Shown here piece by piece: positions 8,710-30,609 of a DNA stretch of 30,609 nucleotides. The first letter of the stretch is position 1. Each line of letters opens with the position of its first letter. Made by a program: the position numbers and the translations under genes. Below the pieces are notes generated by a model that ran no database searches, was not told the DNA's origin, and was given only the letters and a program-made list of their open reading frames with translations. This stretch comes from a virus (lineage: Duplodnaviria; Heunggongvirae; Uroviricota; Caudoviricetes), in the IMG/VR virus record IMGVR_UViG_2529292886_000008. One strand, 5' to 3'.

Positions 8710-9669
8710 ATGAAAATTTGTATCGACGACGGCTCCACCAACATCAAGCTGGCATGGACTGAGAACGGCGAACGCCGCAACGCCATCAGCCCGAACAGCT
8801 TCAAGTCGGAATGGTCTGCGCCATTCGGTGGCACGCAGCCCGCGAACTACATGCTTGATGGCGTGCGCTATAGTTTTGATCCGGTCAGCGATCGCTTTGT
8901 CCAGACGACCGACACGCAATACCAGTACAGCGATGTGAATGTAATTGCCATTCATCACGCGCTGGTCAAATCAGGCATCACACCACAGGAAGTGGATGTG
9001 GTTGTCACCCTGCCACTGAGCGAGTATTTCGATACAAACGCACAGCCGGACATGGCCAACATCAACCGCAAAAAAGCGAACGTCATGCGCCCGGTGGAGT
9101 ACCAGAACGGCGAAGCATTCACTATCCGTAACGTACGGGTTATGCCTGAATCCATTCCTGCTGGCTTTAAGGCACTGGCTGACATGAGTCCGTTTGAATC
9201 CCTGCTGATTGTGGATTTGGGCGGAACCACGCTGGATGTGGCAAAGGTTCAGGGGCAACTGGCAGGTATCAGCCAGGTGTTTTGCGATCCACACGTAGGC
9301 GTTTCTCTGATGGCCGATGCCGTACTGTCGGTGATGGCCACTAACGGTATGCGCACCAGTCACCACATCGCCAATACCATTATCGAACATCGCCATGATG
9401 AAGCCTGGCTGCGCCAGCACATCCACAATGACGCGCATTACGCCAGCCTGATGGCGGTTATTCGTGAAAAGGAAGAAACACTGAAACAACGCGTGATCCG
9501 CGCGCTGGCGGTTTTTTCGGGTTACGGGCGGGTGATGGTTGTCGGTGGCGGGGCGGAGATTGTGGCAACCGCTATCCGCGAAGCCTGCGGAGTTAATGCG
9601 ACTTTCATCGCGGACGGGGTGCCACAGTTTGCTCTGGTTAATGGGTTGTACGCAATGAACAAGGAGTAA
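8710..9669 (+). CDS. parM: Actin-like segregation ATPase ParM/StbA
   Basis: Phosphate-1 motif ICIDDGSTNIK, phosphate-2 LIVDLGGTTLDV, adenosine motif VMVVGGGAEIV. Overall pattern closely matches plasmid R1 ParM as remembered. Confidence 0.85.
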   Translation: MKICIDDGSTNIKLAWTENGERRNAISPNSFKSEWSAPFGGTQPANYMLDGVRYSFDPVSDRFVQTTDTQYQYSDVNVIAIHHALVKSGITPQEVDVVVTLPLSEYFDTNAQPDMANINRKKANVMRPVEYQNGEAFTIRNVRVMPESIPAGFKALADMSPFESLLIVDLGGTTLDVAKVQGQLAGISQVFCDPHVGVSLMADAVLSVMATNGMRTSHHIANTIIEHRHDEAWLRQHIHNDAHYASLMAVIREKEETLKQRVIRALAVFSGYGRVMVVGGGAEIVATAIREACGVNATFIADGVPQFALVNGLYAMNKE

Positions 9670-9673
9670 ACCA

Positions 9674-9988
9674 ATGACGACACCAACCAGACGGATAAGT
9701 TTCTATCTGAAGCCCGCCGCCGTCAAGAGTGAACAGGAGGCGTGCAATTACCTCGATAGCCTGCCAGCCTCCGAACGCAGCCGCGCGCAACGCGCGGCCT
9801 TTCTGGCTGGGCTAGCACTCATAAAGCGCAACCCAGCATTTGCCTACTGGATGGCCGAATGGCCAGAGGACAACCTCCCCTTCAATACCGTTAGCATCAA
9901 GGAAACATACCAGGCTAATCAGCCTAGCGGAGTTGAATGCAATTTTTATAAAATAAAAAAGAATATTCAGACCTTATTCCCAGAATAA
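9674..9988 (+). CDS. parR: Partition adaptor / repressor ParR (StbB-like)
   Basis: Immediately downstream of parM; segment RISFYLKPAAV..CNYLDSLPASERSRAQRAAFLAGLAL matches ParR N-terminal ribbon-helix-helix region from memory. Confidence 0.7.
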   Translation: MTTPTRRISFYLKPAAVKSEQEACNYLDSLPASERSRAQRAAFLAGLALIKRNPAFAYWMAEWPEDNLPFNTVSIKETYQANQPSGVECNFYKIKKNIQTLFPE

Positions 9989-10070: not shown

Positions 10071-10913
10071 TCATGATGAAATTGCCGAAGTTTTTTTATC
10101 GTGCTGAAGTACCGCAAATGCCATTAAAACCTCAAGAGAATAGCGGCGATAATACTTAACAAAACCATAATAAAATACTCGGGATGCAGCAAGACAAAAC
10201 AAGAGAAGAAAACAAAAAGGTAACAGCCTGATATTTATATCTATTAAAAAGGATAGAGGGAACAGACATATAAGCAACCAGACTGAAGCGAGAAAAACAA
10301 ATGTAATGTTTCTACAAAAACCATACAAAGCAACATAGTTTTGCATTTTCACCTGATGATTTTTAGAATGCTCATACACATAATGATAAGCAAGGCGAAA
10401 AAGATCGCCCCTCAAGCCCTTACGTCGATATAGCGTAGATACAGAAAAAACATTTATATAACCATCTCGTATTTGCGGCCAAAAGACTTTAATAAGTATA
10501 GAATGCAGTGTGGTTTTATGATGTTCTGCTTTATCAAAAACTGATACAGGAAGTAGAAAAACTCCACGAATAAAATGAACTATACTGAACTTAGTATTAT
10601 GTCGTTTTATTTTCAGGGGACTTCTTTTAGAAAACAGATAAATTGAAGGATACCCAAGTTTACTGTTCATATATTTTTCAATTAAACAGGATGATAGAAT
10701 AGATATGAAGTGACCTGAAATATATGACAGAACAATTAATACCACATATATAAACACACTTATTATTTCTTTATATTTCAGGATGTGGTTAAAAACACCT
10801 TCTATATAAACAGGGTTAATTTCAATAGAAAACAAAAAAAGGATAAACAGGAATAACCCACCTGGAATTAGATAGCCCAAAAAGTCATAAAATGAAAACG
10901 GATTCTGTGTCAC
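10071..10913 (-). CDS. Multi-pass inner-membrane protein (280 aa), uncharacterised; distal gene of candidate cargo module
   Basis: Long ORF in strongly AT-rich DNA, where random long ORFs are unlikely. About 4-5 hydrophobic helices. Start overlaps the stop of the upstream gene. Confidence 0.7.
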   Translation of the reverse strand: MTQNPFSFYDFLGYLIPGGLFLFILFLFSIEINPVYIEGVFNHILKYKEIISVFIYVVLIVLSYISGHFISILSSCLIEKYMNSKLGYPSIYLFSKRSPLKIKRHNTKFSIVHFIRGVFLLPVSVFDKAEHHKTTLHSILIKVFWPQIRDGYINVFSVSTLYRRKGLRGDLFRLAYHYVYEHSKNHQVKMQNYVALYGFCRNITFVFLASVWLLICLFPLSFLIDINIRLLPFCFLLLFCLAASRVFYYGFVKYYRRYSLEVLMAFAVLQHDKKTSAISS

Positions 10914-11449
10914 ACTTCCCCCTGTGTTACTTGTAAATTAAAGGGTAAAACATTATTTGTTTTCCGTAAAGGATTAGCTTTCCATCTTCTTACTAACCAT
11001 TCGAATTCTTGATATGTAGTATCCGAATTAATGCTTTCTCTGATTGCTTTAATTAATGGCTCGGCAATATCATATGTCTCTACAACTGTTGTGTAAGATG
11101 TTCTTTTTATCATTTTTTCATCATAAATACCTTCACGAATACTTACAGCAACTCGCTCGTAAAAATTTAAAATATATTGAAATTTTCGACGCTCGGCCAT
11201 TTCCTCATCTGTTATTGTACAACCATCACAAGGAAAAACATAAGAACGAAATGATTTGCCTGAACGATGCACTTGTTTCAGGGTATGCAATGACTCTATA
11301 TATTGCATATCTTGCCGACTCTCAAAAAGAAAGTTAGCCGTTTGAGTTTTCTTTGCGGTACGCACATTGTAGATAATGGTTCCAATGGCAACCAAAACGC
11401 CAAGCAGAACAATAGCATTGCTGATGATTTGTAGTGTTATTGGGTTCAT
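10910..11449 (-). CDS. Single-pass N-terminally anchored membrane protein (179 aa), uncharacterised; proximal gene of candidate cargo module
   Basis: N-terminal TM helix (ITLQIISNAIVLLGVLVAIGTIIY) followed by soluble domain with paired Cys (FPCDGC). AT-rich; overlaps downstream gene by 4 nt. Confidence 0.7.
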   Translation of the reverse strand: MNPITLQIISNAIVLLGVLVAIGTIIYNVRTAKKTQTANFLFESRQDMQYIESLHTLKQVHRSGKSFRSYVFPCDGCTITDEEMAERRKFQYILNFYERVAVSIREGIYDEKMIKRTSYTTVVETYDIAEPLIKAIRESINSDTTYQEFEWLVRRWKANPLRKTNNVLPFNLQVTQGEV

Positions 11450-23306: not shown

Positions 23307-25466
23307 ATGAGTACCACAACACGAAAATTTAAAACCATTATCACTGATACTGGTGCCAAAAAATTAGCTCAGGCAGCCGCGCCAGATGGTAATCCTGTCC
23401 GCCTGACTCACATGGCCGTGGGCGACGGTGGCGGCACGTTGCCCACACCAGACAGTAAGCAGACCCGTCTGGTGCATGAGGTGTGGCGACATACTGTTAA
23501 TCGCGTCATCCTGGACGCAACACATCAGAACCGCATTATTGCGGAGCTGGTTATTCCTCCTGAAACGGGCGGATTCTGGATCCGGGAAATTGGTGTATTT
23601 GATGAGCACGGCGATTTGATCGCGGTGGGCAATACTGCCGAAAGTTACAAACCAACCGTTGCCGAAGGATCCGGACGTGCACAAACATTTCGCACCATTC
23701 TGACCGTATCCAGCACTGCCACCGTGGCGCTTACCGTGGATAACACCATGGTTATGGCCACAGTGGATTACGTGAATGACAAACTGAAAGAACATGAACA
23801 GTCACGACGTCACCCGGACGCCTCGCTGACCGCAAAAGGCTTTGTTCAACTCAGTAGCGCCACCAACAGCACGTCTGAAGCACTGGCCGCAACGCCGAAA
23901 GCGGTCAAGGCAGCCTATGACCTTGCTATCGGGAAATATACCGCACAGGACGCCACTACAGCGCGGAAAGGACTTGTCCAGCTCAGTAGCGCCACCAACA
24001 GCGATTCAGAAACGCTGGCGGCAACACCAAAGGCGGTAAAGGCAACATATGACCTTGCTAACGGGAAATATACTGCGCAGGATGCCACCACAGCGCGGAA
24101 AGGCCTTGTCCAGCTCAGTAGCGCCACCAACAGCACGTCTGAAGCACTGGCCGCAACACCGAAAGCGGTAAAGACAGCATATGACCTTGCTAACGGGAAA
24201 TATACCGCTCAGGACGCTACGACAGCACAAAAAGGGATTGTCCAGCTAAGCAGCGCGACTAACAGCGCATCTGAAACGCTTGCTGCGACATCGAAAGCAG
24301 TGAAAGCAGCTAATGACAATGCGAATGGTCGGGTACCTTCTGCCCGTAAGGTGAATGGTAAGGCGCTTTCAGCGGATATAACACTGACACCGAAAGATAT
24401 TGGTACGCTTAACTCAACAACTATGTCATTCAGCGGTGGTGCTGGTTGGTTCAAATTAGCAACGGTAACCATGCCGCAGGCGAGTTCTGTTGTTTCAATT
24501 ACGTTGATTGGTGGGGCTGGATATAACGTCGGTTCACCTCAACAGGCAGGTATATCTGAACTTGTTTTGCGTGCAGGTAATGGTAATCCGAAGGGGATTA
24601 CTGGTGCTTTATGGCAGCGCACATCGGCAGGGTTTACAAATTTTGCCTGGGTCAATACATCTGGTGATACTTACGATATTTACGTTGCAATCGGAAATTA
24701 TGCGACTGGTGTAAATATTCAATGGGATTATACCAGTAACGCCAGCGTAACGATTCATACTTCACCAGCATATTCTGCTAATAAGCCGGAAGGATTAACG
24801 GACGGTTCTGTTTATTCGCTGTATATTTCGCCTCATGAACTTTATCCGGTTGGCGCACCGATCCCTTGGCCATCAGATACCGTTCCGTCTGGTTATGCCC
24901 TGATGCAGGGGCAGACTTTTGACAAATCTGCATACCCGAAACTTGCAGCCGCTTATCCGTCAGGCGTGATCCCTGATATGCGTGGCTGGACGATTAAGGG
25001 CAAGCCCGCCAGTGGTCGTGCCGTATTGTCTCAGGAACAGGACGGCATTAAATCGCACACCCACAGCGCCAGCGTATCCAGTACGGATTTGGGTACGAAA
25101 ACCACATCGTCGTTTGATTACGGGACGAAAACAACCTCACTATTTGACTATGGGACCAAAACTACCAGTAACGCCGGGAGTCACACGCATTCAATACCAA
25201 CATCAGATGGTGCAAACCAGGGGGGGAAAATTCCACTGACATCTGGGCGTCTGGCAACTCAATATACATCAGCAACAACAGGTTCCTCTGGCTCACATTC
25301 TCATACTGTAGGTATTGGTTCTCATCAGCACACTGTCGGTATTGGTGCACACACGCACTCGGTTGCGATTGGCTCACATGGACACACCATCACCGTTAAC
25401 GCTGCTGGTAACGCGGAAAACACCGTCAAAAACATCGCATTTAACTATATTGTGAGGCTTGCATGA
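23307..25466 (+). CDS. H: Tail fibre protein (P2 gpH-like) with internal fibre repeats and HxH-rich C-terminal tip
   Basis: N-terminus [25 protein letters not shown] typical of gpH; C-terminal [11 protein letters not shown]; four 44-aa repeats; HxH motifs near C-terminus. Confidence 0.9.
23838..24340 (+). repeat. In-frame tandem repeat, about 3.8 copies of a 132-bp unit, inside tail fibre gene H
   Basis: Repeat starts at 23838, 23970, 24102, 24234, encoding G(F/L/I)[33 protein letters not shown](R/Q)K. Confidence 0.85.
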
Positions 25467-26365
25467 TTACGCTCATTCTTTCTGCACCAGTAACAGAAAT
25501 GGCTGAAGCATTTAAGCGGGTATTTGCAAACGCAGATAATGTGAATATTGTCGGAAAGCCATTTGAAACAATCAGAGAATTTGACTGTATGGTAAGTGCG
25601 GCAAATAGTTTCGGCCTGATGGATGGCGGTGTTGATGCCGCCATTACCGCATTCTTCGGTACTCAGTTACAGTCCCGCGTTCAGAATCATATTCTTCGTG
25701 AATATCTAGGCGAGCAGCCTGTAGGATCTGCGTTTGTTATTGAAACGGGGCATAATCATCACCCCTGGCTGGTACATGCGCCAACAATGCGTGTTCCGCT
25801 GACAATTGACGGAACAGACGCTGTATATAACGCAACCTGGGCCGCTCTGCTTGCCATCTTTCAGCACAATAAAAACGCAACGACAGACAGGAAAATAAAG
25901 ACGGTGGTATTCCCTGCGATGGGGGCTGGATGTGGTCAGGTACCGTTTGAAAGTGTTGCCCGCCAGATGAAGCAGGCCTGGGATAACTTTAATAAAAAAA
26001 CAGAATCAATTAACTGGGAATACGCACAATCCCGCCAGTCGGCAGTATTTGGCACATATGCATACTGTCCGGGTAATTCTGTTTGCCGTTATGCGGATGC
26101 TAAATATATTGGATGCGGCGATTATCGGACGTATTGCTCACGTTCCGGGCAGGTCTGTATTAACCCTGAACATCAGGCTGATGATGTACTGATACAACAT
26201 CAGGCTAATAACCGGTTTCGCCCTGATTCGCATATACACCGGATTAATCCAGAAAATCCCGTAGGTAATGTCACCTCTGGCGCACATAGCCACAGAAGTA
26301 GCATCGTTATTGGTGCTCACACCCATACGCTCAATAAACAATATTCTGTCTCTGATATTAAGTAG
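25463..26365 (+). CDS. Macro-domain (ADP-ribose binding/processing) protein with Cys-rich and HxH-containing C-terminal region
   Basis: Macro motifs [18 protein letters not shown] and [15 protein letters not shown]-terminus [18 protein letters not shown] resembles HxH repeats in the upstream fibre tip; ATGA overlap with H stop. Confidence 0.75.
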
Positions 26366-26367
26366 AG

Positions 26368-26952
26368 GTGAACATGGATTTCAGAATGAGTGAACAACCA
26401 CGGACCATAAAAATTTATAATCTGCTGGCCGGAACTAATGAATTTATTGGTGAAGGTGACGCATACATTCCGCCTCATACAGGTCTGCCAGCAAACAGTA
26501 CCGATATTGCACCGCCAGATATTCCGGCTGGCTTCGTGGCTGTTTTCAACAGTAATGAGGCATCGTGGCATCTCGTTGAAGATCATCGGGGTAAAACGGT
26601 TTATGACGTGGCTTCCGGCGACGCGTTATTTATTTCTGAACTCGGTCCGTTACCGGAAAATGTTACCTGGTTGTCGCCGGATGGAGAGTGTCAGAAGTGG
26701 AACGGCACATCCTGGGCGAAAGATGCAGAAGCAGAAAAACTGTTTCGGGTACGGGAGGCAGAAGAAACAAAAAACAGCCTGATGCAGGTAGCCAGTGAGC
26801 ATATTGCGCCACTTCAGGATGCCGTAGATTTGGATATTGCGACGGAGGAAGAGGCATCGTTACTGGCTGCATGGAAGACATATCGGGTATTGTTGAATCG
26901 TGTTGATACAACAGTAGCAGCGGATGTTGAGTGGCCAGTCGCCCCACAATAA
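26368..26952 (+). CDS. G: Tail fibre assembly chaperone (P2 gpG / Tfa-like)
   Basis: 194 aa; N-terminal region [39 protein letters not shown] typical of the Tfa family; GTG/ATG start at 26368/26374. Confidence 0.8.
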
Positions 26953-26958
26953 AAAGAA

Positions 26959-26988
26959 AAAGCCATCGACAGAAATATCGATGGCTTT
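26959..26988. terminator. Bidirectional rho-independent terminator between convergent tfa and acetyltransferase genes
   Basis: Perfect 11-bp stem AAAGCCATCGA / TCGATGGCTTT with 8-nt loop, flanked by A-run upstream and T-rich sequence downstream. Confidence 0.6.
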
Positions 26989-26995
26989 ATGTACT

Positions 26996-27568
26996 CTATT
27001 TATACAATACAACACCACTCTTTTTAGTTATATATGTGCAGTTTGATGGTATATCTTTATTTATAAAAGACATTGCACCTATTTTTACATTATCCCCAAT
27101 TTTACGTGATAATCCAATGATGCAACAATTAGCTCCGATATCAACGTTACTACCAATTTTTACTCTTGAACTAGGCATATCACCATCTATCTGTCCAATG
27201 GTAGTATTCTGTCGTAATACCAGATTTTCACCCGCATCAACAGCAAAATGAACAACAATTCCAGCATGATGGGGAATTGTCAACCCTTTTCCAATATTTG
27301 CGCCCAATCCTATTTCACAACCAAACTTGTTAATTATTTTACTGTTTAACTTTTTGGCTGCTTTCTTATGTAATTTATTACCATTAATATACATTTCGTT
27401 AGCCAACCGCCACCAGAAAAGGAAATTCCGGTTACGCTGCTTTTTCTCTCTTAAAAGCCTCCAGATATCCATACGTTTCCGCCGAATTACTTCATGTTTC
27501 CAGAAGTTTTTTAAATTAGTAGAGTTTCCAAATAAAACAAAGTGAATTGCCATTAAGTAAGATAGCAC
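26996..27568 (-). CDS. Hexapeptide-repeat (left-handed beta-helix) acetyltransferase, CysE/WcaB-like; lysogenic-conversion-type cargo
   Basis: C-terminal hexapeptide repeats (GCEIGLGANIGKGL..IGSNVDIGANCCIIG..IGDNVKIGAMS). Strongly AT-rich. Preferred start is the GTG at 27566-27568 with a perfect AAGGAG 6 nt upstream; the open frame extends to 27601. Confidence 0.75.
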   Translation of the reverse strand: MLSYLMAIHFVLFGNSTNLKNFWKHEVIRRKRMDIWRLLREKKQRNRNFLFWWRLANEMYINGNKLHKKAAKKLNSKIINKFGCEIGLGANIGKGLTIPHHAGIVVHFAVDAGENLVLRQNTTIGQIDGDMPSSRVKIGSNVDIGANCCIIGLSRKIGDNVKIGAMSFINKDIPSNCTYITKKSGVVLYK

Positions 27569-27724
27569 GATAATCTCCTTAATTATTATTTCAGACCACA
27601 CATGTTATAAGGTTAAGAGATTATAAAATCCTGTTATTTGTTATTCAAAAACAATTTTCTGAGAAGGACATACAACAGCAAGTCGCCAGTCACCTTCATC
27701 AGGAAATTGGCGACATACGTTAAA

Positions 27725-28219
27725 TCAGAGCAGCCCCTTAACTGAGCTGGCCGCGCTATTAAGGGATGATGTCACCTTATCTTTGAAGCCGGACAGCATA
27801 TCGCTGAACGATGAGGATTGCAGGCGCTCCCGCAAATCCTCATCACAGCGTTCAAGAGTCAGTGAAAATTCTATCTTTTTCGCCTTACCGTAGCGATCAA
27901 ACTCGGAGCGGGTCGTATTCGTTCCGGTCAGGACATACATGCCGTAAATCTGCCCGACGCCATCAATCAAAGGCCAAGGACGTCCTGTATATGCCTGCGT
28001 GGTCAACAACGACAGCGACACTTCGCCACCAGTAATCTCAGGATAAAGAACACCAGAAAGAACGATGCGATCATCACCTGCACCGATATACTGCCAGCTT
28101 GCTGAACGGTTAACGCGTTCATTTTTCACATGTCGCCAGCTTTTGTTTTGCTGTAACTGCTGATGCGGCAACGTGCGCAGCTCAAAAACAAACATGCCGT
28201 AGATCATCATCATGGCCAT
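27725..28219 (-). CDS. U: Tail protein U (P2 gpU-like)
   Basis: 164 aa; pattern MMMIYGMFVFEL..SWRH..LSGVL.PEITGG..WPLIDG.GQIYGMYV..KIEFSLTLER matches gpU family from memory; tightly coupled downstream of tape measure. Confidence 0.75.
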   Translation of the reverse strand: MAMMMIYGMFVFELRTLPHQQLQQNKSWRHVKNERVNRSASWQYIGAGDDRIVLSGVLYPEITGGEVSLSLLTTQAYTGRPWPLIDGVGQIYGMYVLTGTNTTRSEFDRYGKAKKIEFSLTLERCDEDLRERLQSSSFSDMLSGFKDKVTSSLNSAASSVKGLL

Positions 28220-28225
28220 GACTCC

Positions 28226-30439
28226 TCAATCTTTATCGTAAAAACTGCCACGCCTGGCACGGGCGCGCCGTTCCATTTCTGCCCTGACCATTTCGCCGAC
28301 CAGTTTCGCCAGTTCGCGGGGATTCTGCGTAACAACGTTATGCAGATGAACATGAATTTCACCGCCAAATCCGGAGGCAACAGGCTCCCGGTTACGGGAA
28401 GTTGCAGGAACTGATGCCACTGGCGATCGTATGGCCTCCACCACCGGGCGGGAGCTGGCCGCAACAACAGGGACCAGCGCCGGAGGCAGCGGAGCCGGGA
28501 CCACGGGTGTGATATTAATTGCGGGGGCAGGCTTACTGACCTGCGCAATCTTCCGCTCCTGCCACTCCCCACGAACAGCAAGTGCGCGGGGCAGGTTCTT
28601 AAAGACAATATCGCCGGGGCCAATGCGTTTTTTTGTCTCATCAACCAGCTTACCTGTGTTATCAGCAATTTTGCTGAGTCTGCGTAGCGTGCCGGTATTG
28701 CTGTCTGTGAGAGGTTTGTTGTCTTTGGGTTTATCATCTCCGGTGCCATTGCTATTTCCCGCAGACTTCGGCGGATTGATTTTCGCAATGTCTCCCTGAA
28801 ACAGAGCAACCTTGTCCTGAAGAATGGCCGCACGTTGTGCGTCTTCGATTTTCTTGCGCGCCCTTTCCGCTTCATCCGGAAGCACACCGAGTTTTTCAAG
28901 TATCCACGCCAGCGTATCCAGCAACATTTTTGCAGGCGTCAGAACAAGCTGTAACGCACCACCAAGAACGTTACCGAATACCTCGCCAGCACTGGTACAT
29001 TTATCCAGCGTTTCCTTGCTGGACTCCATCGGTGACAGCAGCGATTTAAACCAGTTAAACACCTGGCTGATCCCGCTTCCGATTACGTCAAAAACAGGGC
29101 CAAACCGTTCAAAGGTGTCGCGCAACGGGGTCAGCCTTTCCATAATCCCGCTGAACACCCCGGCAAAGAAAGCCCTGATAGGATCCCAGTATTTCCAGAT
29201 AAGAACGGCAGCTCCGGCAAGCGCAGCCACGATAAGACCAACCGGACTGAACAACGCCCCGATAACGCCTCCCAGTAAAGAAACGGAACCCGTCACCATT
29301 CCCCATAGCGCAGGTAACACCCTGACGACATTCATTGACCGGGTAAGAATGTCAAAACCAAGACGCAGGGTGGCCAGCTTCCCGTAAAGCACCCCAATAA
29401 CCAGCGACAACGAGCCAATCGTTGCAGTCATTGCCAGCAACGCACCGCCTGCTATCAGTAGCTGGCGCGTCAGTACCGGATGGGCCTGCGCCAGCGAGGT
29501 GATTTTTTCAAGCACCCGCGTGAGCCACTGCGTGACAGAACGCAGCGGACCGTCAACCAGATCACTGATGCGAATACGAAGACCTTCCCATGCGCTGTCG
29601 AGATTTTTCAGGTCCCCATCAAGATTATCAGCCATTACTTTTGCGACGCGATCGGCCTCTCCCCTTGCCCCCTGCAATTCTCTGGTCAGTTTTTGCAGCT
29701 CTCCTGAACCAGCCGCCGCAACAAGCGTCTGCAAACCAACGAACGCCTCTTCTCCGGCGATGTCCTTGAAGAAGGAGACCTGGTCCACCTGTCCGTATTT
29801 TTGTGTCGCCTTATAGAGATCAAGCAGCACATCCTCCATCGGGCGCATTTTGCCTCTGGCGTCAGCAACTGACACCCCCAGCTCTTTCAGTGCATCAGCC
29901 GCAGCTTTTGGCGGTGATGCAAGGCGGGACAGACTTGCGCGCATGGCCGTGCCAGCATCGCTTCCGCGAAGACCATTATTGGCAAGCATCCCGGCCATGG
30001 CCGCCGCTTCTTCAAGACTGATACCAAGTTTTGCGGCAACCGGACCGGTATACTTCATGGTTTCGCCCAGCGCGCGTAAATCAGTATTGGTCCGGGTAAA
30101 TGCTGCTGTCAGCGTATCGCCCACCCGGTCCATTTGATCGGCTGTCAGGTTGAACTGTGTGAGGATATTGGAGCCTATATCAGCCGTCTCGCCGAGTTCG
30201 ACGCCACCTGCCAGCGCCATATTAAGAACACCGGGCAATGCGGCCTGAATGGCCTGCGGAGTAAAACCAGCCATTGCCAGAAAGCTCTGCCCACTGGCGG
30301 CATCACTCGCAGTAAACTGTGTTTCAGCAAGTTTTAACGCCTGCTCACGCAGCGCCTTAAACTGCGGGCTGTTTTTGTCGATTCGCGTCAGTGCCTGAAC
30401 GCGGGACATCTCTTTGCCGAACCCGATCGCAGGCTGCAA
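28226..30439 (-). CDS. T: Tail tape measure protein (P2 gpT-like); 5' end possibly beyond window edge
   Basis: 737 aa from the first in-frame start codon (TTG at 30439), helical and Ala/Gly-rich with hydrophobic central block. The frame stays open to position 30609, so the true start may lie upstream or outside the window. Confidence 0.8.
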   Translation of the reverse strand: MQPAIGFGKEMSRVQALTRIDKNSPQFKALREQALKLAETQFTASDAASGQSFLAMAGFTPQAIQAALPGVLNMALAGGVELGETADIGSNILTQFNLTADQMDRVGDTLTAAFTRTNTDLRALGETMKYTGPVAAKLGISLEEAAAMAGMLANNGLRGSDAGTAMRASLSRLASPPKAAADALKELGVSVADARGKMRPMEDVLLDLYKATQKYGQVDQVSFFKDIAGEEAFVGLQTLVAAAGSGELQKLTRELQGARGEADRVAKVMADNLDGDLKNLDSAWEGLRIRISDLVDGPLRSVTQWLTRVLEKITSLAQAHPVLTRQLLIAGGALLAMTATIGSLSLVIGVLYGKLATLRLGFDILTRSMNVVRVLPALWGMVTGSVSLLGGVIGALFSPVGLIVAALAGAAVLIWKYWDPIRAFFAGVFSGIMERLTPLRDTFERFGPVFDVIGSGISQVFNWFKSLLSPMESSKETLDKCTSAGEVFGNVLGGALQLVLTPAKMLLDTLAWILEKLGVLPDEAERARKKIEDAQRAAILQDKVALFQGDIAKINPPKSAGNSNGTGDDKPKDNKPLTDSNTGTLRRLSKIADNTGKLVDETKKRIGPGDIVFKNLPRALAVRGEWQERKIAQVSKPAPAINITPVVPAPLPPALVPVVAASSRPVVEAIRSPVASVPATSRNREPVASGFGGEIHVHLHNVVTQNPRELAKLVGEMVRAEMERRARARRGSFYDKD

Positions 30440-30609
30440 AAAACGCCCGGCAGCATAGCCGCCCGCCGCTGCCGCACCAATTGCCAGCGCACCACCTGTT
30501 TTCAGTTTTCCCGCGGTTTCCTGCGCGTGCGAATACTGAACCGCCCCGGAAATCCTGGAGACTAAACTCCCTGAGAAAGAGGTAAACAGGATGACTAAAA
30601 ATACTCGTT

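Follow-up and report, generated by a model that had tools for sequence, protein, structure and literature searches.

Why should a gene for a macro-domain protein lie between a phage tail-fibre gene and the gene for the chaperone that assembles the fibre? The question is raised by IMG/VR virus record IMGVR_UViG_2529292886_000008 (Caudoviricetes), a stretch of 30,609 nucleotides that is referred to here, at its full length, as the window. A first-pass annotation, made from the letters alone, had noted that an open reading frame (ORF) of 300 amino acids intervenes between fibre gene H and the assembly gene, and this is the arrangement that we find. The ORF occupies the coordinates given by that annotation, 25463..26365 on the + strand, stop codon included; its product is identical to RefSeq WP_000631344.1, its start codon overlaps the stop codon of H in an ATGA junction, and the tail-fibre assembly gene tfa follows. 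We show below that this macro gene is a clean optional insert, mobile with the fibre/tfa cassette among unrelated enterobacterial prophages. The features concerned are the following, with the evidence in brackets.

25176..25466, + strand: 3′ end of fibre gene H, with the HxH repeat region and the conserved fibre C-terminus (precedes the macro gene always)
25463..25466, + strand: ATGA overlap of the macro start and the H stop (left edge of the insert, translational coupling)
25463..26047, + strand: macro domain, residues 1-195, nearest to the Ymx7/Macro2 type (Pfam, AlphaFold2 [AF2], Foldseek, profile search, and the ratio of non-synonymous to synonymous substitution rates [dN/dS])
26048..26182, + strand: Cys-rich module, residues 196-240, with a conserved pattern that closes with HQ.DD (alignments, dN/dS, AF2)
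26183..26362, + strand: variable His-rich, fibre-tip-like tail, residues 241-300 (hhalign, BLASTP, dN/dS)
26365..26376, + strand: right edge of the insert, a GAGGTG Shine-Dalgarno-like site followed by the tfa ATG at 26374 (comparison with the empty junction)
26374..26952, + strand: tfa, a tail fibre assembly chaperone of the lambda Tfa type (Pfam Caudo_TAP, E=7e-40)

Insertion and mobility at the fibre/chaperone junction

The ATG of the macro gene lies within the sequence GCATGA, and the gene shares four nucleotides with the end of fibre gene H (23307..25466), whose stop codon is the TGA. The same 4-nucleotide ATGA overlap was present in every enterobacterial locus whose fetched DNA included the upstream fibre gene. 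On the other side, tfa, which by the RefSeq start codon begins at window position 26374, is the immediate downstream gene throughout the examined loci. Among the loci compared, the upstream fibres all end in ...TVKNIA(F/Y)NY(I/L)VRLA, and the downstream Tfa proteins all start with M.F(R/K/T)MS....

Junctions without the macro gene were searched for with a chimeric query consisting of the last 300 nucleotides of H and the first 300 nucleotides of tfa. Such empty junctions were found in 38 E. coli genomes, with an identity of at least 95.5% among the full-length matches listed. In one of them, E. coli 55989, the prophage is of the same type, the downstream acetyltransferase, U and T genes included, and its fibre stop and tfa start read GCATAATGG. 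The insert is therefore flanked precisely by the last fibre codon on one side and by the tfa ATG on the other; it restores translational coupling at its left edge through the ATGA and supplies the GAGGTG ribosome-binding site of tfa at its right edge. Comparison of the junction among related phages, which the first-pass annotation had proposed, thus bears out an insertion. Since the precise empty site occurs in the same prophage type, the macro gene is dispensable for the fibre/Tfa pair, as expected of accessory cargo.

The macro gene is carried by 128 of the 5426 complete E. coli genomes, at 109 chromosomal places and 22 on plasmids, and the fibre, macro, tfa triplet was observed in 45 of 45 records sampled evenly down the ranking of these 128. 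P2-like carriers comprise the window, the isolated phage Chuche, and the plaque-forming Salmonella phages SEN4 and SEN5, while Gifsy-1 (gene STM2588.1n), GPEC389, and ST131 strains carry it in lambdoid side-tail-fibre modules. The triplet is also found on P1-like plasmids, and another carrier is a linear 48-kb plasmid-prophage with SopA/ParB partition genes, which we take to be N15-like. A large protein collection holds the family as 1712 clusters at 90% identity, and the names of the 120 best come almost exclusively from genera of Enterobacterales (Escherichia, Salmonella, Citrobacter, Erwinia); a genome scan added Izhakiella to the carriers. The macro gene is 100% identical in 15 genomes and intact even within defective prophage remnants. 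Its G+C content (0.44-0.49) is similar to that of the fibre tip and of tfa.

No sigma-70-like site or terminator above shuffled expectation was found in a promoter and terminator scan at the macro gene. Given that no promoter exceeds chance and that the start codon overlaps the H stop, we infer that the macro gene is co-transcribed and translationally coupled with H in the late operon, so that its product would be made late, alongside the fibre and Tfa. The protein has no signal peptide; like the stand-alone homologues, it opens directly with the first beta-strand of the macro fold.

Fold and active site of the macro domain

The first-pass annotation had recognised a macro domain at the N-terminus from three motifs, which are located at residues 46-48 (AAN), 55-58 (GGVD) and 150-156 (FPAMGAG). 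Both ADP-ribose-binding loops are present, namely loop 1 (N48-x6-G55-G56-V57-D58) and the Gly-rich loop 2 (G154-A-G-C-G158), and the domain also contains an H105-A-P-T-M motif. The Pfam profile PF01661 (Macro) matches residues 44-169 over all of its 118 positions (E=8e-19; 68.1 bits against a cut-off of 22). An AF2 model built on a shallow 15-sequence alignment reached a predicted local distance difference test score (pLDDT) of 49 and was set aside; the prediction was repeated with 127 sequences, stand-alone homologues included, and exceeded 90 across residues 1-200, with the three-layer alpha/beta/alpha architecture of macro domains. Against the Protein Data Bank (PDB), the top Foldseek match was yeast Ymx7/YMR087W (1NJR; E=4e-11, 198 columns, root-mean-square deviation 2.9 A), followed at about 1e-7 by TTHA0132, macroH2A, and MacroD-type enzymes. 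All natural proteins among the best 50 PDB matches listed are macro domains, the rest being designed 'serine hydrolase' (OSH55) variants, whose scaffold was left unchecked. A profile search of PDB sequences likewise placed 1njr first (E=1.8e-7). From the motifs, the PF01661 match, the AF2 model and the best PDB match, the ORF certainly belongs to the macro superfamily, as had been proposed; structure prediction returned a macro fold, with Ymx7 as its best match, and not the lack of one that the annotation had allowed for.

Among 127 sequences, both phage-borne and stand-alone, residues N48, D54, G55, G56, D58, H105, G154, and G158 show no variation. In the profile alignment, N48, D58, and H105 correspond to N80, D90, and H145 of Ymx7, which Kumaran et al. 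are said to have proposed in 2005 as its catalytic residues. The dN/dS of the macro domain, 0.02-0.12, indicates strong purifying selection. These observations bear on the possibility, raised in the first-pass annotation, that the ORF is a pseudogenised fibre fragment without conserved catalytic residues, or a spurious ORF altogether. Nothing speaks for it except the short HxH similarity to the fibre described below. Because the macro domain is under such selection, and with N48, D58, and H105 invariant in the 127 sequences, we regard this explanation as refuted and give it practically no credence; furthermore, more than 1700 clusters have an intact ORF, the macro fold is modelled at pLDDT above 90, and dN/dS lies far below 1.

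Sub-family and stand-alone relatives

Judging from the profile alignments and the model, the nearest sub-family appears to be the Ymx7/Macro2 type, which falls short of proven membership. Ymx7, an ADP-ribose-1″-monophosphatase, shares the N-x9-D loop and the HxPT motif with the phage protein; it differs in being eukaryotic and stand-alone, with a link to tRNA splicing and no Cys/HxH extension, and the identity is about 21%. Many homologues carry a precomputed match to the Pfam family Macro_2 (PF14519). The Macro2-type clade, typified by Ymx7, converts ADP-ribose-1″-phosphate to ADP-ribose without removing mono-ADP-ribose from proteins (de-MARylation) (PMC6397177). The closest viral structures, in BFVD, come from stand-alone macro proteins that giant viruses and jumbo phages encode.

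Macro domains of the DarG/TARG1-like type, which phages employ against DarT, are more distant. DarG (5M3I) was ranked 25 by Foldseek (E=4e-6), the T4-type protein Tk.4 was ranked 32 in BFVD (E=8.5e-5), and the PADLOC profile of DarG gave only a marginal match to the macro protein (E=0.0044), with no significant stretch. Neither the macro protein nor the acetyltransferase nor Tfa had a meaningful match to a defence system in PADLOC, and no ADP-ribosyltransferase (ART) or DarT-type toxin partner was present in the cassette at any locus examined. A DarG/TARG1-like membership was therefore rejected on the structural distance, the marginal E value and the lack of an adjacent toxin. The sub-family evidence, drawn from sequence profiles and a predicted structure, argues for small-molecule ADP-ribose derivatives over DarT-type DNA adducts as the likely substrates.

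Stand-alone proteins some 200 residues long, such as the 'appr-1-p processing enzyme family protein' of Acaryochloris marina, match residues 1-195 at 47-57% identity; they occur in Chloroflexota, Acidobacteriota, cyanobacteria, Bacteroidota, and other phyla. These proteins have all the invariant residues in common with the phage macro protein; in contrast to it, they stop at about residue 200, lack the Cys module and the HxH tail, and are encoded on chromosomes outside phage tail modules. When the gene neighbourhoods of 72 such loci were clustered, no neighbour proved to be conserved, and the highest-ranking 'clusters' consisted of ORFs antisense to the macro gene. The stand-alone homologues thus look like solitary housekeeping-type enzymes, whose context is uninformative on function. 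Judged by sequence similarity, the phage-borne domain evidently derives from their family.

The Cys-rich module and the fibre-tip-like tail

Residues 196-300 are confined to the enterobacterial phage-borne family. The Cys-rich segment that the first-pass annotation described has cysteines at residues 202, 208, 218, 225, and 232, i.e., five in 31 residues (shuffling P=0.007). In the family alignments, four residues (C202, C225, C232, and H237) never vary, the conservation of C208 is at least 90%, and a core YIG.GDYRTYC is common to the family. The dN/dS of the module is 0.15-0.3, and AF2 models it at a pLDDT of 50-65, with a low-confidence beta-hairpin at 211-225. No relatives of the C-terminal extension outside the family were found in a single-sequence search of 1.84 billion representatives, which returned only same-family fragments, as did a profile search with the Cys module; one 2049-residue match (P0122) was rejected as an unrelated repeat protein.

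In the tail, HxH motifs begin at residues 257, 275, and 286, with the HxH-repeat stretch at residues 273-289. Three HxH motifs in the last 60 residues are more than shuffling predicts, both for the whole protein (P=5e-4) and for the tail only (P=0.016). The resemblance of this tail to the tip of the upstream fibre, suspected from the first, holds at the profile level: hhalign of the tail profile against one built from the last 130 residues of the upstream fibres gave a probability of 95% (E=2.7e-8) over the HxH repeats, and BLASTP of the tail against the window's own fibre gave E=0.004. Similar HxH (iron-binding) repeats are found in the tips of lambda Stf, P2 H, Mu S, and P1 S and in the T4 gp37 needle; in trimeric fibre tips such as T4 gp37, HxH motifs coordinate Fe2+ (summarised in PMC8174754). 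Compared with fibre tips, the tail of the macro protein has one to four, often degenerate repeats and another C-terminus, and it has no shaft or baseplate-attachment domain. No Pfam match to tail-fibre domains (Phage_tail_fib, Phage_fiber_2, Collar) was obtained for the macro ORF, which also lacks the conserved fibre C-terminus, nor was any match to the Tfa family (Caudo_TAP PF02413 or PHROG). Identification of the ORF as a tail fibre or as Tfa was accordingly rejected, given that only its HxH tip region is fibre-like and that Tfa is the next gene.

The tail is the least constrained part of the protein (dN/dS 0.29-1.3). Its length and its number of G-x-H-x-H units, which recur about every 11 residues, differ by lineage, the latter between one and four; several repeats have degenerated to YxY or YxH, and natural tail-less alleles of 255 residues, ending at the first HxH, occur on 8 contigs. 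Nevertheless, the HxH motifs are kept in Escherichia, Salmonella, Erwinia, and Izhakiella in spite of strong divergence. A blastn-short search for gene conversion between the tail and fibre genes found no long nucleotide identity, only matches of 10-19 nucleotides at HxH codons, which indicates that any fusion is old. The recombination-derived fusion that the first-pass annotation suggested is thus compatible with the profile similarity, and finds no counterpart in long nucleotide identity with current fibre genes; we read the tail as a probable old fusion with a fibre-tip fragment. Taken as a whole, the C-terminal extension, which is less constrained than the enzyme, probably serves as a metal-binding element for oligomerisation or docking.

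Three side observations concern this part of the protein. An A7 run at 25993-26003 (residues ~177-181) lies exactly where the macro domain meets the C-terminal extension, and two database variants of 242 residues (P0033 and P0115) have a frameshift at this run and have lost the Cys/HxH extension, which may reflect either sequencing error or slippage. In the 300-residue homologues of Izhakiella australiensis (L011, L012, L013), the Cys module is replaced by a Cys/Gly/His-rich segment (…GCDCGCGWG…ECRCGRHNH…), while the HxH tail is retained and ends in HGVKK, as in the Erwinia version. The Izhakiella australiensis strain has three copies of the macro gene, each ahead of a tfa gene.

Previous annotation and related phage macro domains

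In RefSeq, the family goes by the name 'macro domain-containing protein' or, in some cases, 'phage tail protein'; a Macro domain is also noted in the Gifsy-1 record. In PHROGs, the protein matches phrog_2613 over its full length (E=7e-149), a family of 'unknown function'. The 'tail protein' names look like annotation by neighbourhood. Literature searches combining macro domains with tail fibres, Gifsy-1, or SEN4/5 found no study of the phage-borne macro family, and no description of its fixed fibre/Tfa-junction position or of its macro/4-Cys/HxH architecture.

Phage macro domains of other kinds have been described. The T4 protein AdfM is a macrodomain anti-DarTG2 factor (bioRxiv 10.1101/2025.11.20.689424). 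AdfM (Tk.4) and DarG-like mimics share with the present protein the plausible target, ADP-ribose-based immunity, which is a functional analogy only: they belong to another macro sub-family, and the AdfM gene lies outside tail-fibre cassettes. In 2022, Iyer et al. proposed that Macro genes which phages encode within morphogenesis clusters act against soluble ADP-ribose derivatives (PMC9503650). The Macro, NADAR, and Nudix genes of that survey are in the same general situation as ours, with an ADP-ribose-processing domain among late structural genes; unlike the macro gene at the fibre/Tfa junction, the retrieved examples associate with head and packaging genes. A term search of the text of the survey did not find 'tail fiber', 'tail fibre', or 'Gifsy'.

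Proposed role and alternative explanations

We favour, with moderate confidence, the explanation that the macro protein is a late-made cytoplasmic hydrolase or binder of 1″-substituted ADP-ribose derivatives, carried as optional cargo, that protects the phage from NAD+/ADP-ribose-based immunity; both the substrate class and the counter-defence role are inferred. The macro domain would have been captured from the widespread stand-alone bacterial family and fixed as optional cargo precisely at the tail-fibre/chaperone junction. No module of enterobacterial temperate phages is exchanged horizontally more than the one to which this junction belongs. Candidate substrates include ADP-ribose-1″-phosphate, the products of NADases or NAD+ phosphorylases, signals derived from TIR domains, and possibly ADP-ribosyl adducts. 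By hydrolysing, or at least binding, ADP-ribose derivatives at the 1″ position, the protein could blunt the immunity of the host that relies on NAD+ or ADP-ribose.

Several points weigh against this explanation. Counter-defence genes are usually early, whereas the macro gene lies in a late structural operon. The Ymx7-type assignment is based on remote similarity (21% identity), and the ORF itself scores 23.5 bits against PF14519, under the 27-bit cut-off. The window's own prophage is truncated by an insertion sequence (IS) and is probably incapable of a lytic cycle. Finally, a purely enzymatic role in the cytoplasm does not account for the conservation of the Cys module or for the persistence of the HxH motifs.

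We consider an association with the virion possible, if rather unlikely. The HxH tail, folded by Tfa, would trimerise round metal and dock the macro domain on the fibre tip or on Tfa; with the same modest likelihood, the particle-borne enzyme would then act at the cell surface or enter at the next infection. The alignment of the tail with the HxH region of fibre tips, the Fe2+ coordination by HxH in the trimeric T4 gp37 tip (PMC8174754), the constant place of the gene between fibre and chaperone with translational coupling to the fibre, and the retention of HxH across four genera are all consistent with it, and Iyer et al. propose packaging of macro proteins from morphogenesis clusters (PMC9503650). 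Conversely, the protein has neither an N-terminal attachment domain nor the conserved fibre C-terminus, its tail reaches a dN/dS of 1.3, decays to YxY or YxH, and is missing from the 255-residue alleles, and the same fibre/Tfa pair is found without the macro gene. Moreover, an ADP-ribose-like substrate is not known on the enterobacterial surface, a fibre-tip protein would stay outside the cell, and the 'tail protein' names in databases look derived from the neighbourhood. The variable, weakly constrained tail and the sufficiency of the fibre/Tfa pair without the insertion would suit a selfish or neutral hitch-hiker, i.e., an ordinary housekeeping enzyme of the ADP-ribose-1″-phosphate type that arrived in a hot spot of recombination, spreads with the fibre cassette and whose HxH tail is an insertion scar. 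The lack of a conserved neighbourhood in the 72 stand-alone loci is as expected for a housekeeping enzyme. Against this explanation, which we judge unlikely, the macro domain is under very strong purifying selection within phage genomes, the Cys module is conserved, and the family persists as more than 1700 clusters, which together argue for a selected function in the phage context.

Protection of the lysogen was also considered: expressed from the prophage, the enzyme would reverse ADP-ribosylation of the host by superinfecting phages (Alt/ModA/ModB-type) or by ART toxins, or would serve as an orphan antitoxin. In line with this, the gene is identical in 15 genomes and intact even in defective remnants, and a separate moron, the acetyltransferase gene, with its own promoter, adjoins the cassette. 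The absence of a promoter-like site above chance at the macro gene, the overlap of its start with the fibre stop inside a late operon, and the lack of an ART or toxin partner in the cassette, with DarG only marginal in PADLOC, make this role improbable in our view. A further idea is motivated by a precedent from Thoeris defence. In Pseudomonas N4-like phages, alleles of the side-tail-fibre and chaperone genes determine the activation of type II Thoeris, whose signal, histidine-ADP-ribose (His-ADPR), is sensed by a macro domain (bioRxiv 10.64898/2026.06.04.730250). By analogy, the macro protein might be a hydrolase or sponge for 1″-substituted signals (His-ADPR, gcADPR) or NADase products, co-translated with the fibre/Tfa trigger and held on it by the HxH tail. 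We regard this as a speculative and quite unlikely proposal; if true, it would represent a new class of anti-signalling enzyme and a counter-defence physically linked to its trigger.

The surrounding prophage

The prophage in the window is a remnant bounded by IS1203/IS629 copies of the IS3 family (window 1-538 and 28226-30609). In O157:H7 PV15-279, an IS end identical to window positions 1-75 adjoins the truncated tape-measure gene. The integrase ORF (35-538, - strand) has an Int_N domain only, and the tape-measure ORF (28226-30439, - strand) lacks its N-terminus; in O157:H7 PV15-279, there is also a holin pseudogene. Within fibre gene H, tandem repeats of ~132 nucleotides with 83-85% identity (23835-24317, + strand) encode four Phage_fiber_2 repeats.

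Unlike in P2, the tail genes U and T follow tfa on the minus strand (27725-30439), and in strain FHI_NMBU_03 genes E, FII, and FI continue on the same minus strand. SEN4 and SEN5 (Senquatrovirus) have the same orientation of the two genes after tfa (tail protein and tape measure); as these phages form plaques, the orientation is probably a lineage trait and not damage.

Between tfa and these tail genes lies a gene for a hexapeptide acetyltransferase of the CysE/EpsC/WcaB-like type (26996-27601, - strand), of low G+C content (0.33). It has its own promoter-like site (27648-27620) and a terminator hairpin (26959-26988), typical of a moron. A P1-like plasmid also has the acetyltransferase gene after tfa, as does E. 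coli 55989, in which the macro gene is absent; the acetyltransferase gene hence travels with the fibre-tip/tfa block. Its product may modify surface polysaccharide in lysogens. Since macro domains can deacetylate O-acetyl-ADP-ribose, a pairing of the two enzymes was considered; it was rejected because the acetyltransferase occurs without the macro gene.

Elsewhere in the window, a variable spot before the portal gene (10071-11449, - strand) contains an ORF of 279 amino acids, with no Pfam match and a weak PADLOC match to Csx27 (E=4.6e-5), and a DUF4760 ORF. This spot is a hotspot of the P2 old/tin type, and FHI_NMBU_03 has an ead/Ea22-like gene there; the two ORFs are possible uncharacterised defence cargo. 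ParM-like and Plasmid_stab_B partition/stability genes (8710-9988, + strand) are present within the integrated P2-like prophage.

In E. coli FHI_NMBU_03, a gene for an NAD+ phosphorylase of the RES family lies past the ogr/hok end of the prophage, about 10 kb to the right of the macro gene (L003 30155-30982). RES toxins yield ADP-ribose-1″-phosphate (as cited in PMC7824862), and this is the substrate of Ymx7-type macro domains. A link between the two genes was nevertheless rejected as probably coincidental, the RES gene being outside the window and not conserved with the macro cassette.

Significance

Macro domains of phages are increasingly recognised as a means of countering ADP-ribose-based immunity in bacteria. 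The family described here fits this existing concept, and its new part, as far as our literature searches show, is the junction position together with the three-part architecture. It is abundant in medically important hosts, being carried by Gifsy-1 of Salmonella LT2, by prophages of E. coli O157:H7 and ST131, and by P1-like plasmids. Given that natural isogenic versions with and without the macro gene exist, along with isolated phages (the plaque-forming SEN4 and SEN5, and Chuche), its role is directly testable. Engineers who swap fibre/chaperone cassettes to change host range would transfer the macro gene unknowingly. Its fixed place inside the most mobile host-range cassette shows that accessory enzymes can hitch-hike with receptor-binding modules.

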